Part shown: positions 50,257 to 55,186 of the stretch, in pieces
Position numbering within the stretch: the first letter of the stretch is position 1
How the letters are laid out: each line of letters opens with the position of its first letter
DNA from: a virus
Lineage: Duplodnaviria; Heunggongvirae; Uroviricota; Caudoviricetes
Strand: one strand, 5' to 3'
Length of the DNA stretch: 64,000 nt
Virus record (IMG/VR): IMGVR_UViG_3300046355_000236
Notes under the pieces: model-generated
Told to the model about the DNA's origin: nothing
The model's database searches: none
What the model saw: the letters and a program-made list of their open reading frames with translations, nothing else
Position numbers and translations under genes: made by a program

Positions 50257-50730
50257 TTATGCAGCTAATACTTCCTTCAAACGATCAGCAGCGTATGATG
50301 CAGCAAACGCTCTTGGTTTAACCATTGGGATAACGTTACACGTTCCCTTGATGTATCCAATTGCTTGCTGTACAACACAGCTTGAACCATACATTTCGTT
50401 TGGGTTAATATCTAGGTGAACTTCAACTTCCCGATCTTCCAATACATCTTTCAACTTTTGGAACAAATCAGAAACCTTATACACTTCGTTCATCAACCGC
50501 ATTGAAGGCTTGCTCTTCTTTTGATCGTAGTCAAGTTCGGTTTGCACTTCACCGAAAATCTTACAACCATGACATCCATCGATGTGTACAACAACGGCGA
50601 GAGTATAGTCAGCATACCATTGGCCATTCAGTTTAAAGCGTACTGAATCAGCGCCAATGTAAATCTTTGTAGATGGTCCTTGTGCCTCAATGAATTCTTT
50701 AACTTCATTGATATCTAACTTTTTCATCAT
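50257..50730 (-). CDS. hypothetical protein (possible RNase H-like/YkuK-like fold)
   Basis: ORF; the ATG at 50730 is preferred over the TTG at 50739. Confidence 0.35.
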   Translation of the reverse strand: MMKKLDINEVKEFIEAQGPSTKIYIGADSVRFKLNGQWYADYTLAVVVHIDGCHGCKIFGEVQTELDYDQKKSKPSMRLMNEVYKVSDLFQKLKDVLEDREVEVHLDINPNEMYGSSCVVQQAIGYIKGTCNVIPMVKPRAFAASYAADRLKEVLAA

Positions 50731-50745
50731 ACTCTCCAAAATATT

Positions 50746-50851: not shown

Positions 50852-52270
50852 TTAGGTCAACGCATAGCGATCGACCATAACTGCCTTAAGCATGATGCCT
50901 TGTGGAGTGAATTGTTCCGTGTTGGAAGACAAGACAGCTTTCACAACTGCTGGGCTAAACCCAGACACAAGCGCCACACCGGACTCGTTTGCCTTTACAG
51001 GTACGTTGTCCTTAGCGTTCAGGTTCCAGAACACAATGGCAGGAACCTTGTAGCCAGCTTCTGCAAACTTACGCTTGATCATCTGCATTGCAGAGTCATC
51101 GTACGTTGCGCACTGGTTGAATTGCATGTCTGACAGGATCAGCAACATTTCTGGCATCTCTGCTTGAGGAACGTTTGCATCTACAGCAGTCTTCAAGATC
51201 TTTGCCATAGCCTTGTTCAGGTTAGTGGACATATTCCAAGAAGACTTAGACATTTGCTGGACCTTCTGAACAATGTTGCCCTTCAAGTGCAACAGCTCTG
51301 GATTGTCAGAGAAAGTCAGGAACGTGTCCTTGAACTTACCCTTGTTCTTATCTGCCAGGTACAAACCAAGCGAGATAGCAACATCCATACAGGTCACAGA
51401 ACCAGAACCACCAGCTGGGCAGCTCATAGAGCCGGAAACATCAACCAAAGGCAGAATGTTTGCATCCCCAACGTAGTTAGGCAGAGCTTCCCATTGCTTT
51501 GCAATGTGATCCAACTCGGTCTTACCGTAGTTGTTAGACATATATCCGTTGCACATGCCTTTCAGCACGTCGTATGGATACACAGCCCCTGCGTTAACCT
51601 TGACGCCTGCTTCGCCCTTAACGAGCTTAGCAACGTATTCAGCAAACTTCGTACCGTGACGAGTAAACGCCTTCTTGTAACGAGCAGATGCTACGGATGG
51701 CACATGGTTGTAGTTAATATCATCCCACTTACCAGCACACATTTGCTGTTCGACCACATTCGTCAGATTAACCAACGACTTACGGTAGAACTTTGGCGAC
51801 ATGCCGAAGAAGGTACGAATCTCTGCGGCCAGAGGGCCTTGACGAGGTGTCCACTTTGCAGCCAAGCCATTCTTCTCACGAAGAGCATCACCTAACATGG
51901 TGAAAGCCTTAGCCTTCAGATCCTTATCTTCAAAAACAAAGATGTCATCCCAGCGACCGATTTCTGGCGTCTTGGCCAGCAATGCTGCTGCAGCATCCTT
52001 ATCGTGCTTTTCCAGATACTTTAGAATCTGACGGTACAACGCACGTTCACCAGATCCACCACGTGCGTCACGTGCCCATTGAGCAATACGCAATGCAACG
52101 TCTTTGTCTTCGACGTATGCGGCTACAAAGTCCTTGGTAATATCCTTACCACGGCTTGCACCGATCTTGAAAAACAAGTCTACACATGCATCTGCAGTGG
52201 ACTTGCGAGCCTTCATACCGTTAGTGGTACGAGCTTCTTGGTTCTTAACAGCTTCTACGAATGTTGACAT
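50852..52270 (-). CDS. Ro60-like protein (TROVE-like N-terminal domain + C-terminal vWA domain with MIDAS)
   Basis: MIDAS VDVSGSMS..; N-terminus TTNGMKARKST..LFFKIGASRG resembles the Ro60 TROVE signature FLCFGSEGG. Confidence 0.5.
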   Translation of the reverse strand: MSTFVEAVKNQEARTTNGMKARKSTADACVDLFFKIGASRGKDITKDFVAAYVEDKDVALRIAQWARDARGGSGERALYRQILKYLEKHDKDAAAALLAKTPEIGRWDDIFVFEDKDLKAKAFTMLGDALREKNGLAAKWTPRQGPLAAEIRTFFGMSPKFYRKSLVNLTNVVEQQMCAGKWDDINYNHVPSVASARYKKAFTRHGTKFAEYVAKLVKGEAGVKVNAGAVYPYDVLKGMCNGYMSNNYGKTELDHIAKQWEALPNYVGDANILPLVDVSGSMSCPAGGSGSVTCMDVAISLGLYLADKNKGKFKDTFLTFSDNPELLHLKGNIVQKVQQMSKSSWNMSTNLNKAMAKILKTAVDANVPQAEMPEMLLILSDMQFNQCATYDDSAMQMIKRKFAEAGYKVPAIVFWNLNAKDNVPVKANESGVALVSGFSPAVVKAVLSSNTEQFTPQGIMLKAVMVDRYALT

Positions 52271-52280
52271 AATGAACTCC

Positions 52281-52400
52281 TTTTCAAATCAACAGGTTAA
52301 ACTTTTTGCTAAGCGGGTGTGCTACCATTACACTACTAGTCGGAATCGAACCGATCCACCTGCGTGGGTTTGCATTAAAGAGATTGCGGAACTTAACCTA
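52281..52400 (-). ncRNA. E1: tRNA-like module (T-arm, then D-arm) inside a 7-bp stem, directly upstream of the Ro60-like gene; Y-RNA (YrlA-like) candidate
   Basis: Minus-strand RNA GCAGGUG-GA-UCGG-UUCGAUU-CCGA-CUAGUA-GUGU-AAUGGUAGC-ACAC-CCGC, flanked by UUUAGGUUAAG ... GUUUAACCUGUU; tail runs into the Ro60-like start codon. Confidence 0.5.
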
Positions 52401-52675
52401 AATTCAGCAGATTGGTTATCATTGAGGCTATCACGGCACTCAGCCAGATTCGGGCTATCTTTATGGTGATTTTTGTACTTGCTGTACCCAATCTAAAATC
52501 AACAGAGTAGTTTCCTTCTTTTTGTTTTACATGAGAACACGAAACTCATGTCTACCATACGTGTTAACGTATACAACCTTCAAAGCCCATACAGGCTCCA
52601 GTTGCATACCACCTTGGTAAGCCGTTACTGGAATTGCTCCCAGTTAGTTTTGTTTGCTGAACCTACTCTAAAAAC
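52401..52675 (-). ncRNA. structured leader with nested complementary motifs
   Basis: UUUUUAGAGUAGGUUCAGCAA at 52654-52675 pairs with CUACUCUGUU about 190 nt downstream on the RNA; several hairpins between them. Confidence 0.3.
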
Positions 52676-52702: not shown

Positions 52703-53227
52703 TCAGATTAGAGTCAACTGTTTAAAAATATCTTCAAGCAAAATAGGTCTAAAATCTGTTTGCTCTACGCAAGCACAGAAGTACCAAGGATCAGGGTTTA
52801 CACCCCACTTGTCTTTGACCACATTTGCGTGCAAGTGACCGTGCACGTTAGCCTTGAAGCGGCCTTTGCTTTCCGTGTGAATGGGAATGTGACTAAAGAT
52901 GACGTTGTTCATCACATGGTAAGCTCTAATGTCCCGAAAATGTTCTGTATATTCTTCGAGACGGAAAATATCGTGGTTACCTTTGATCAGGACCTTGTCG
53001 CCATTCAACCTGCTAAGCGTTTTAAGTGCCTTTCGGTTAATAACAACATCACCCAAGTGATAAACCTTGTCGCCAGGACGAACAGTTTCGTTCCAACGCT
53101 TAATCATTTCTTCATCCATTTCTTCTGGCGTATCCCAGGGACGAAGCTTTGTTCCATCATCACGAAGGAACTTACACACACCGGCGTGGCCAAAGTGTGT
53201 GTCGCTAACTACGAATGTCGCAGCCAT
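52703..53227 (-). CDS. calcineurin-like metallophosphoesterase
   Basis: VVSDTHFGH, GDxxxR and GNHD motifs. Confidence 0.65.
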   Translation of the reverse strand: MAATFVVSDTHFGHAGVCKFLRDDGTKLRPWDTPEEMDEEMIKRWNETVRPGDKVYHLGDVVINRKALKTLSRLNGDKVLIKGNHDIFRLEEYTEHFRDIRAYHVMNNVIFSHIPIHTESKGRFKANVHGHLHANVVKDKWGVNPDPWYFCACVEQTDFRPILLEDIFKQLTLI

Positions 53228-54300: not shown

Positions 54301-54377
54301 TGGTACCCACAGCGAGATTCGAACTCGCACTGTACAGATTTTGAATCTGTTGCCTCCTACCTATTGCGCTATGTGGG
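54301..54377 (-). tRNA. Leu-anticodon tRNA (CAA), atypical short variable arm, A73
   Basis: Perfect acceptor GCCCACA/TGTGGGT; anticodon arm ACAGA-TTCAAAA-TCTGT. Confidence 0.55.
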
Positions 54378-54594
54378 CATTATTAAACAGGATACGTTTT
54401 TTACTCTGCTCTACCAACTGAGCTACCCCTCCACTAAACTTATTCATCGAACTCCTCAGACGGTTACTCTAAGTCATAACGCTCTTCAAATCGTAGACCA
54501 ATACGACAGGAATAAGTTTAGTGGAGGGGGATGGAATTGAACCACCGACACGAGGCTTTCAATGCATTTTATGTTGCTGAATGTATCCTAAAAC
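54378..54594 (-). ncRNA. E3: permuted tRNA-like module with 20-bp acceptor-extension helix enclosing a ~65-nt loop
   Basis: RNA: T-arm GGTGG-TTCAATT-CCATC, CCCCTCC-A-CTAAACTTATTC [loop] GAATAAGTTTAG-T-GGAGGGG, TA, D-arm GCTC-AGTTGGTA-GAGC; flanked by GUUUUAGGAUAC.. and ..GUAUCCUGUU. Confidence 0.55.
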
Positions 54595-54596
54595 TT

Positions 54597-54686
54597 TGGC
54601 GGTGCGACTGAGACTCGAACTCAGAACCCAGCTTTCGCTAAGCGACAGATTAGCAATCTGCTCTAATACCATTATAGGACCGCACC
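54597..54686 (-). tRNA. tRNA-Ser (GCU), type II
   Basis: Anticodon arm CAGAT-TGCTAAT-ATCTG; long variable arm. Confidence 0.7.
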
Positions 54687-54693
54687 AATATTC

Positions 54694-54783
54694 TGGCGGT
54701 GTGTGGAGGAGTCGAACCCCGGCCAGCATTCGCCAACCGTCCGCTTTCCAGGCGGATGCTAGAACCATCTAGCTGCACACACC
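54694..54783 (-). tRNA. tRNA-Ser (GGA), type II
   Basis: Anticodon arm TCCGC-CTGGAAA-GCGGA; long variable arm. Confidence 0.65.
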
Positions 54784-54911
54784 AATAACAGGTTCAATTT
54801 TTTACGTGCTACCACTACACCAACGCGAAGACCAACTCGCGTCCGGGATTCGAACCCGGCCCCTCTTTTTTACAGAAAGATTATTTTTGATTGCTGAAAT
54901 GAACCTAATGG
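54784..54911 (-). ncRNA. E2: permuted tRNA-like module (T-arm, acceptor-like hairpin, D-arm; no anticodon arm)
   Basis: RNA: CCGGG-TTCGAAT-CCCGG, ACGCGAG-TTGGTC-TTCGCGT, TG, GTGT-AGTGGTA-GCAC, then GUAAAAAAUUGAACCUGUU; flank helix UAGGUUCA / UGAACCUG. Confidence 0.55.
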
Positions 54912-55035
54912 TCTAATTTAACAGGATGCTGTGTTATCGCCGGGAATCGAACCCCTATTACAAACACGGTCCCCAACTGGACGGCCTGGCAAAAGTGGCG
55001 CCATAAGTTGTTTGCTGTATTCATCCTAAAAATGG
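54912..55035 (-). ncRNA. E4: armless tRNA-like module (D-arm GTCC-AGTTGGG-GGAC then T-arm GGG-TTCGATT-CCC)
   Basis: No pairing acceptor stem; framed by AUUUUUAGGAUGA.. and ..GCAUCCUGUUAA. Confidence 0.4.
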
Positions 55036-55094: not shown

Positions 55095-55186
55095 TGGCGG
55101 AAAGCAGAGGAGTCGAACCCCATCCCCGTTAGGAGAACCTGGTTTTCAAGGCCAGTCGCAGGACCAACCCCGCTGCATTACTTTCC
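55095..55186 (-). tRNA. tRNA-Ser (UGA), type II
   Basis: Anticodon arm CTGGC-CTTGAAA-ACCAG (4 bp); long variable arm. Confidence 0.65.

Follow-up and report, generated by a model that had tools for sequence, protein, structure and literature searches.

Particles of Ro60 and Y RNA are conserved from bacteria to humans, and their RNA partners have been known only for proteins recognisable by the TROVE domain. [quoted passage not shown] In the Thermus phage phiLo, Ro60 binds Y RNA-like RNAs (Yrl1 and Yrl2) that are encoded directly upstream of its gene (PMC12135203). Here we describe an element, E3, from a tailed phage (Caudoviricetes; IMG/VR record IMGVR_UViG_3300046355_000236), of which one stretch of 64,000 nucleotides, hereafter the window, was analysed. 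E3 occupies positions 54389-54589 on the minus strand, between tRNA-Ser(GCU) (54597-54686) and tRNA-Leu(CAA) (54301-54378). Judged from comparative sequence analysis, it probably encodes a stable, tRNA-mimicking non-coding RNA related in kind to Y RNAs, in which a tRNA-like body is joined to a module for a Ro60-like protein. YrlA, the closest known kind, was absent from the candidates named in a first-pass annotation of this DNA, which had been made from the sequence alone.

As that annotation had correctly noticed, the 3' half of a tRNA-like body precedes its 5' half on the minus strand, in the order T arm, CCCCUCC, A73, 12 extra paired nucleotides, a 64-nt insert, GGAGGGG, UA and D arm. The 5' part of the unit reads UUUUAGGAUAC-AUUCAGCAA-CAUAAAAU-GC-AUUGAAA-GC-CUC-GUGUC-(GGUGG-UUCAAUU-CCAUC)-CCCCUCC-A-CUAAACUUAUUC, and the part that follows the insert reads GAAUAAGUUUAG-U-GGAGGGG-UA-(GCUC-AGUUGGUA-GAGC)-A-GAG-UAAAAAAC-GUAUCCU-GUU. 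The T arm (54530-54546), preceded by a 5-nt variable region (GUGUC, 54547-54551), leads into the acceptor 3' strand (54523-54529), the discriminator A (54522) and the first strand of the extension (54510-54521). Beyond the insert (54446-54509), which caps the extended acceptor helix, come the second strand of the extension (54434-54445), U-1 (54433) and the acceptor 5' strand (54426-54432), and then, within 54404-54425, U8-A9, the D arm (54408-54423), A26 (54407) and the trinucleotide GAG (54404-54406). The acceptor strands and their 12-nt extensions together form the perfect 20-bp inverted repeat that had been reported, with arms (54426-54445 and 54510-54529) of 20 nt each that are 100% complementary and 64 nt apart, close to the loop of about 65 nt originally given. 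This is the sole perfect 20/20 inverted repeat within the 12-kb tRNA region, its chance expectation being roughly estimated at less than 1e-5. Acceptor pair 3-70 is A3-U70, and E3 has ACUA, without the encoded CCA that all real tRNAs of the array possess.

The same annotation held that no anticodon arm could be formed from the flanks, which proved mistaken. GAG (54404-54406), directly 3' of A26, pairs with CUC (54552-54554), and these pairs are stacked on a GC/GC hairpin (54564-54565 with 54555-54556) to give a 5-bp stem, GAGGC/GCCUC, closed by the canonical 7-nt loop AUUGAAA with U33, UGA and A37 (3' part of the arm, 54552-54565). When the halves are un-permuted in silico, they make a 76-nt tRNA that is called by ARAGORN, with anticodon UGA. 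Also overlooked was the helix that closes the whole element, formed by AGGAUAC in the leader (54583-54589, with a conserved UUUU at 54590-54593 before it) and its exact 7-nt complement GUAUCCU in the trailer (54389-54395, with the A-rich linker UAAAAAAC at 54396-54403 before it and a conserved GUU after it); the unit delimited in this way corresponds approximately to the interval that had been annotated. Directly 3' of the leader strand lies the single-stranded motif AUUCAGCAA (54574-54582; consensus UWCAGCAA), which is presumed to be a protein-recognition element. The cloverleaf-like fold, at -66.0 kcal/mol, comes within 4 kcal/mol of the unconstrained minimum (-69.9 kcal/mol). The insert (54446-54509, minus strand) holds a hairpin, GUCGUA-UUGGUC-UACGAU, whose loop is the same as the acceptor-closing loop of the neighbouring unit 54908-54790, and a T-loop-like AGGAGUUCGAU; it may be a remnant of another tRNA-like unit.

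A search for homologues in related phages, which the first-pass annotation had suggested as a check, yielded six further distinct E3 orthologues from different samples by pattern scans (L126/L202, L201 and L203-L206), in all of which the halves remain permuted and the flanking module, D arm and anticodon segment are preserved. In an alignment of the seven orthologues, window copy included (alignment A2), in which the proposed structure was scored cell by cell, 98.6% of the structure cells are paired and 14 pairs are changed on both sides. None of 500 shuffles matched the observed values, and slid registers gave at most 3 two-sided pairs and at most 55% pairing. Of the 20 pairs in the rod formed by acceptor helix and extension, 12 are compensated; the T arm keeps five of five pairs, one of them changed on both sides, and one pair of the closing helix (alignment columns 12/208) occurs as AU in five copies, as CG in one and as GC in one. 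The extension helix is made from four unrelated sequences (CUAAACUUAUUC, CUAAGGGCAC, CUGAUMAUAYCAG and AUAAGAACA), and four lineages show perfect pairing of the helix across the RNase P site. The anticodon arm, by contrast, is invariant in all seven orthologues while the other helices drift, and the insert is conserved neither in sequence nor in length, being absent from L201. This orthologue also lacks the extension and reads CCCCUCC-A-CCA-AGACCUAAGUUUUAG-U-GGAGGGG, so that CCA is encoded after A73. G-U pairs are tolerated in the helices, which argues for selection acting on an RNA and not on a DNA palindrome. A recent rearrangement or pseudogene, which the first-pass annotation had envisaged in case relatives carried an intact tRNA at this locus, is contradicted by orthologues that keep the permuted order with compensatory changes. 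The D and T loops are AGUUGGUA and UUCAAUU in the window copy, AGUUAGUA and UGCAAUU in four of the six other orthologues and close variants of these in the remaining two; the change fits a coupled switch at the G18-U55 elbow contact (A18 with G55) and may be a single event.

E3 belongs to a multi-copy family of structured RNAs whose fold is kept by compensatory changes. The window holds 11 units of this family, all on the minus strand, with a common closing module, UUUUAGR-helix-UWCAGCAA ... helix'-YCUGUU, in which the helix covaries between units. The leader UUUUAGR-N4-6-UWCAGCAA is present in ten minus-strand copies between 52400 and 59930, and for every one of these ten motif-defined leaders an exact complement of 6-7 nt, with GUU behind it, is found downstream, the helix sequence being different in each. 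A covariance model (R1) was built exclusively from 46 short units of other phages, in the alignment of which CAGCAA is invariant, with the closing helix as its sole structure. In the 64-kb window it gave 10 matches, all on the minus strand (E from 1e-12 to 0.01), including the 5' module of E3 (24.8 bits, E=1.6e-5) and an eleventh unit (about 52405-52290).

Several other explanations of the module were tried and rejected. Against the reading of TTTTAG...CAGCAA...TAAAAT as a sigma-70-type promoter, the TTTTAG-proximal bases pair with the downstream trailer and covary with it; promoter-like sites were likewise not enriched, 24 being counted where 17.2 ± 3.7 were expected. A mobile element with terminal inverted repeats does not agree with a helix sequence that varies between copies, in 42 versions, and the flanks, with a leader of 26 nt and a trailer of 18 nt, are too small for a self-cleaving ribozyme or a permuted group I intron and have no Rfam match of that kind. 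A megablast search of the region against cultured phages returned no match, and a 14-base leader pattern run over viral contigs gave single chance matches only, none with a matching trailer; protein-anchored loci were used instead.

The protein in question is encoded 2.1 kb downstream of E3 on the same strand, by the open reading frame (ORF) 50852-52270. It is a 472-aa Ro60-like protein with DUF2828 and DUF7788 domains, presumed to be the partner of the units, in which a TROVE-like helical ring is combined with a vWA domain (Pfam, phrog_850, Foldseek). The residues of its MIDAS motif, DVSGSM, are invariant, and phrog_850 is labelled 'RNA-binding protein' in PHROGs. When the AlphaFold model was searched with Foldseek, 9KOP ('Trove domain'; E=1.9e-7, TM 0.57) and 9L5Y_B (Ro60 of phage phiLo; E=2e-6) were recovered, and Ro60/TROVE structures were the only significant full-length fold matches, all others being to vWA domains. 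The sequence itself found no match in the PDB, and its identity to phiLo Ro60 is only 17%. A mycobacteriophage homologue with identical Pfam architecture is annotated as 'Ro-like RNA binding protein'; no functional literature on DUF2828, PF11443 or DUF7788 was found. The gene is surrounded by a calcineurin-like metallophosphoesterase gene (52703-53227, minus strand), located directly upstream of the three units that precede the Ro60-like gene, and by an RNase H-like (PF04308) gene (50257-50739, minus strand) directly downstream of it and of a tRNA-Gly; this may be an RNA-processing neighbourhood.

The module and this protein family are linked in genomes across wide distances. In 80 viral contigs chosen for proteins 70-82% identical to the window protein and scanned for motif plus complement, 255 units were found on the strand of the gene and 1 on the opposite strand, and 172 of the 255 end no more than 500 nt upstream of the DUF2828/DUF7788 gene. 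Of 245 leaders defined by the motif only, 209 have their own exact complement, with 42 distinct helices, as compared with 12.9 (maximum 18) when helices were swapped between leaders. R1 also matched just upstream of homologues of 28-40% identity in assemblies of Brachyspira, Clostridia, Muribaculaceae and Deferribacteraceae, all 17 of its matches in genome loci being on the gene strand. Among cultured phages, likewise on the gene strand, Listeria phage LP-125 has three matches directly upstream of the gene and Campylobacter phage CP81 has one upstream of it; R1 also matches in the tRNA array beside the gene in Felixounavirus HK3 and, in mycobacteriophage Clautastrophe, a short way downstream of the 'Ro-like' gene. 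The last phage carries three units in tandem, which follow the pattern GUGGAC-x-ACAGCAA...x-GUCC-AGU. In Brachyspira sp. G79 the homologous gene is found among housekeeping genes and is preceded by two units with a consensus TTGACA-17-TATAAT promoter and U-run ends, which points to free-standing small RNA genes whose ends coincide with the closing helix. In the six phage records examined the unit RNAs are unannotated, and none of these RNAs attains the gathering score of any Rfam family.

YrlA provides the closest comparison. With it E3 shares an end-formed stem around a T arm, a closed acceptor-like stem-loop and a D arm, and the units as a group are, like YrlA, same-strand genes near a Ro60-type gene, often in multiple copies, E3 itself being 2.1 kb away and three of its siblings abutting the gene. 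E3 differs in possessing a separate anticodon-like arm, so that the exit of the chain lies between this arm and the D arm, and in its presumed partner, which represents the DUF2828/DUF7788 branch, Ro60-like by fold and undetected by the TROVE model of Pfam. The units also reach a number of up to 11 per genome and are interleaved with tRNAs. Since motif, Rfam score, protein branch and anticodon arm all differ, E3 is not YrlA as defined. In Clautastrophe, the middle unit combines a T arm, an 8-bp closed acceptor and a D arm with the CAGCAA module and is matched over its full length by the Rfam YrlA model (39.3 bits). At gathering thresholds, the Rfam matches on seven loci were dominated by tRNAs and were uninformative on YrlA and on the Class I RNAs discussed below. 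The phiLo system is comparable in that its Ro60 (9KOP, 9L5Y) is the closest solved fold to the product of ORF 50852-52270 and in that Y RNA-like genes lie upstream, as do three units here. The phiLo RNAs, unlike E3, were recognised through a CGAA motif located in a stem-bulge-stem, and their description does not present them as mimics of a tRNA bearing an anticodon arm (PMC12135203).

On this reading the RNA folds into two modules. E3 would be co-transcribed with the neighbouring tRNAs and released by ordinary tRNA end-processing. The first module, common to all 11 units of the window, is made of the 7-bp stem of the 5' and 3' ends, followed by UWCAGCAA on the 5' side and by A-rich linkers, and would serve as the binding site for the Ro60-like protein, by analogy with the stem of Y RNA that binds Ro60. 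The second is a tRNA look-alike (anticodon-like arm, variable region, T arm, 7-bp acceptor and D arm) with a closed acceptor end, entered and left by the chain between the D arm and the anticodon arm, its acceptor forming a 20-bp rod capped by the 64-nt insert. This body could recruit or titrate a tRNA-binding factor, candidates being an exoribonuclease such as PNPase, as in the known Ro60-Y RNA machines, tRNA-modifying enzymes or a host anticodon nuclease, and the RNA would tether the factor to the Ro60-like ring, or gate the ring, during infection.

A number of observations weigh against this interpretation. The stem-adjacent UWCAGCAA (AUUCAGCAA in E3) replaces the GNCGAAN0-1G that YrlA carries near its 5' end as putative Ro60-binding site, and the Rfam YrlA model (gathering score 69 bits) has no match to E3 at E<=10, its best scores being 25.1 bits for a sibling and 39.3 bits for a unit of a relative. 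The model of the protein is of moderate confidence (pLDDT 68.7, TM 0.57); the TROVE model of Pfam does not match it, and the Ro60-vWA model does so only at E=0.016, which at the same time explains why TROVE-based surveys missed the DUF2828/DUF7788 family. Between E3 and the gene lie tRNAs and the phosphoesterase gene, and at a distance of 2.1 kb the link of E3 to the protein depends on the shared closing module. R1, moreover, fails to span the 160-nt interior of E3 even with filters off, pairing the leader with a nearer pseudo-trailer; the true trailer was recognised by its exact complementarity and its covariation in the orthologues. A complete anticodon arm, a 7-bp G1-C72 acceptor, A73 and the CCA of L201 make E3 more tRNA-like than a mimic needs to be. 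Finally, we infer its expression, its RNA ends and its binding to the protein alike.

The sibling units differ widely in what the closing module encloses. In order of decreasing coordinates on the minus strand, U1 (59870-59925; R1 67.1 bits), U2 (59061-59122; 62.3 bits), U3 (58647-58708; 65 bits) and U4 (57594-57661; 42.8 bits) carry a hairpin, with the loops CUGUUAA in U1, CUUGUAA in U3 and CUUUUAA in U4. U5 (57312-57426; 37.8 bits) has a T arm, a closed 7-bp acceptor and a D arm, and gives a weak full-length YrlA match of 25.1 bits. U6 (54922-55029; 29.4 bits) encloses a degenerate tRNA-like cargo, and U7 (54790-54908; 40.1 bits, E=1.6e-6) has, within its closing module, the anticodon stem-loop UCUUU-CUGUAAA-AAAGA, a T arm, a 7-bp acceptor with a 6-nt closing loop and a D arm. 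U9 (52504-52671) and U10 (52409-52496) are larger structures, which stand in tandem with U11 (about 52290-52405) upstream of the Ro60-like gene, together covering 52290-52671; U11, a CCGCAA variant with a T arm and a D arm that is matched by R1, ends 20 nt before the ATG. Across the family, most sibling units have an "acceptor" stem closed by a loop of 2-5 nt and no CCA, many are a single hairpin without a tRNA body, and many begin right after the CCA of a tRNA. In many of them, both in the window (59925-59870, 58708-58647, 57661-57594 and 54908-54790) and in the loci L122-L183, a 5-bp hairpin carries a 7-nt C-U-NNN-A-A loop that resembles an anticodon loop (with GUU, UGU, UUU, GUA, GGA, GCA, GAU, UGA or UAA). 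Two units of related phages (L129:6427-6526 and L144:5187-5292) enclose, between the strands of the closing helix, complete non-permuted tRNAs (Cys GCA and Arg UCU, respectively, according to ARAGORN), the former scoring 60.7 bits on the Rfam tRNA model, so that tRNA bodies of more than one topology occur within the module.

Some of the small units recall the Class I RNAs of Dictyostelium (RF01414), which are 42-65 nt long, are transcribed from a DUSE promoter, are reported as unique to Dictyostelia and have the RRM protein Rnp1A as their known direct binder (PMC7919456). The RF01414 model matches the unit 59869-59922 (minus strand; U1) over its full length, with 40.1 bits against a gathering score of 41.5 (E=7e-5), and the unit 54789-54905 (minus strand) with 18.8 bits. 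Class I RNAs and units have in common a G-started 6-bp terminal stem, an A-rich variable interior often with a hairpin, and a 3' C-UG; right after the 5' stem strand stands (C)CUUACAGCAA in Class I RNAs and UUACAGCAA or UUUCAGCAA in the phage units. The 11-nt Class I motif CCUUACAGCAA is matched only partially, by AUUCAGCAA in E3, where the stem is present, and by UUACAGCAA in its siblings. E3, at about 200 nt and in a T4-like phage (gp32 and gp59 are encoded in the window), is unlike a Class I RNA in other respects, and RF01414 has no match on E3 or on the units of Listeria, Myco- and Felixouna-phages. We treat this resemblance as a lead and not as membership, homology being not established.

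Permuted tRNA genes are known from Cyanidioschyzon merolae, from other algae and from Thermofilum; their 3' half comes first, the joined halves make a canonical cloverleaf, the archaeal/eukaryal splicing endonuclease cleaves them at a bulge-helix-bulge, and all members are tRNAs. Could E3 be a gene of this kind, its precursor cut at the module and its ends ligated, or left as two pieces associated via the acceptor and anticodon stems? The insert would then be removed by RNase P or RNase III, and 3' trimming and CCA addition would yield a UGA-anticodon tRNA or adaptor. The order of the halves and the cloverleaf with anticodon that ARAGORN recognises after joining, with its 7-bp acceptor, A73 and canonical D and T loops, are as expected of such a gene, so that the topological likeness to algal permuted and archaeal split tRNAs noted in the first-pass annotation holds. 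It does not extend further: by inspection, the E3 junction is a 7-bp helix followed by an asymmetric internal loop of 14 nt (CAGCAA included) against 8 nt, without the arrangement of 3-nt bulge, 4 bp and 3-nt bulge that defines a bulge-helix-bulge. Bacteria are not known to have a bulge-helix-bulge splicing endonuclease, and the host system is bacterial. Seryl-tRNA synthetase, moreover, needs a long variable arm, which a class I body with UGA lacks, and a conventional tRNA-Ser(UGA)-like gene is already present at 55099-55186. The CCA encoded by L201 speaks for a tRNA, and so do the extended-acceptor layout of the phage's own two-piece tmRNA (described below), the two units with complete tRNAs between the module strands, the RtcB-like ligase near the homologous gene of Listeria phage LP-125 and the processing of M. 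smegmatis YrlA by RNase P, with CCA addition, in vivo (PMC4201824). Against it stand the ACUA of the window copy, where all real tRNAs of the array have CCA, a helix that remains perfectly paired through the RNase P site in four lineages, which disfavours RNase P, permuted siblings whose acceptor is closed by only 2-5 nt, and the many family members that have no tRNA body and cannot be tRNAs. We regard a genuine permuted tRNA gene as distinctly unlikely. E3 is neither a broken tRNA gene nor a split one, and of the alternatives offered by the first-pass annotation the structural RNA is borne out, by a conserved family with compensatory changes, and the permuted or circular intermediate is not.

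The phage possesses a gene of the same layout, a two-piece (permuted) tmRNA (transfer-messenger RNA) at 60811-61207 on the minus strand with the tag ANDEKFALAA (ARAGORN, 60795-61176, its only tmRNA call), in which the acceptor stem (with G3-U70), ACCA and an extension form a 22-bp hairpin of 86% complementarity (61020-61041 / 61074-61095) across the processing site. In two-piece tmRNAs (RF04321/RF01850), as in E3, the T arm and the acceptor 3' strand lie upstream of the 5' strand, and the acceptor continues into a helical extension with a loop. E3 differs from them by the lack of an mRNA-like reading frame, of pseudoknots, of G3-U70 and of an encoded CCA, and by its full D arm and anticodon-like arm; the permuted-tmRNA model of Rfam scores 18.2 bits on it, against a gathering score of 47, and covers the T arm and acceptor only. 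It is conceivable, and in our estimate very unlikely, that E3 is matured in a comparable manner to a two-piece tRNA-like molecule, a UGA adaptor carried by the Ro60-like protein. The extended acceptor helix would be cut by RNase P or RNase III, the 3' end trimmed and provided with CCA, and both pieces held together by the closing module, giving a product that might be aminoacylatable or act as an adaptor engaging ribosomes or enzymes. Permuted or split tRNAs would then have their first representative in a bacterial virus.

A more specific version of the effector step in the tRNA-mimic interpretation is that E3 and the hairpin-only units serve as decoys for anticodon nucleases, or as sponges for tRNA-modifying enzymes, on a protective Ro60-like scaffold. 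Large tRNA arrays of phages, such as those in which the units sit, have been linked to the evasion of tRNA-cleaving defences. The anticodon arm of E3 does not vary among orthologues whose other helices do, and about 53 of 208 distinct units pass a crude test for a 5-bp hairpin with a 7-nt loop having U33 and R37 (for example CUGUUAA, CUGGAAA, CUGCAAA, CUUGUAA, CUUUUAA and the AUUGAAA of E3), a count to be read in the light of A/U-rich sequence, which makes C-U-NNN-A-A loops easier to obtain by chance. As such loops are confined to a subset of units and are mostly absent from those adjacent to the gene, we consider the decoy function unlikely. The idea that E3 is a decaying by-product of tandem tRNA duplication and palindromic insertion, with no function of its own, agrees with the young appearance of a perfect 20/20 repeat, with long hairpins of similar size between other tRNAs of the array and with the junction of L201, where a tRNA 3' end with CCA is followed by a spacer, the usual AAGUUUUAG leader and the next 5' half. 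It resembles the place where two tandem tRNA copies meet, a hint at the origin of the permutation. Decay is nevertheless largely refuted by the order and every helix being kept in seven orthologues, with 14 compensated pairs, accepted G-U pairs and an extension rebuilt from four sequences, as well as by the conserved flanking module common to more than 250 units, and it appears extremely improbable. A stable tRNA-mimicking RNA with a module for the Ro60-like protein remains our preferred interpretation of E3.

Additional features were observed in the surrounding tRNA array. Three more long hairpins lie between tRNA genes (54032-54049/54123-54140, 60261-60280/60369-60388 and 59204-59222/59333-59351), with 18-20 bp, 90-100% complementarity and loops of 73-110 nt. 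At least two of them begin with the CCA end of the upstream tRNA, which they would sequester, and in the third a perfect TTGACA-17-TATAAT occurs (59237-59209, minus strand); all three may serve as RNase III or processing stems. Two tRNAs with long variable arms on the minus strand were missed by ARAGORN and score 50.9 (54697-54784) and 36.7 bits (55099-55186) on the tRNA-Sec model of Rfam; by eye they are a tRNA-Ser(GGA) and a tRNA-Ser(UGA)-like gene, respectively, so that the gap left by ARAGORN contains tRNAs as well as units. A further ARAGORN tRNA at 58226-58301 (minus strand), to which the program assigned no identity, has a four-base anticodon (auac) in an 8-nt loop. In Listeria phage LP-125, the RtcB-like ligase is encoded 1.3 kb downstream of the homologous gene (L231:5855-7066), and a full-length match to the ROOL RNA (L231:1471-2022; 87.4 bits against a gathering score of 99.1) lies between tRNAs, about 640 nt upstream of the three CAGCAA units.

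Taken together, these data indicate that the DUF2828/DUF7788 family is a Ro60-like protein with its own class of RNA partners. The family is represented in 710 cultured-phage records (among them Felixounavirus, Twort-like, P100-like, Campylobacter and Vibrio phages) and on Brachyspira chromosomes, and the unit RNAs form a widespread and apparently undescribed class, without an Rfam family, that can be recognised by the closing stem and CAGCAA. Such a class accounts for tRNA-like fragments that are skipped by tRNA finders or are liable to be misannotated as pseudogenes. The near-threshold match to the Class I RNAs of Dictyostelium raises a question that crosses kingdoms, and the cargo of the units, which spans the range from bare look-alikes of an anticodon arm to a complete tRNA mimic such as E3, offers a handle on the function of phage Ro60-like proteins and on tRNA mimicry.

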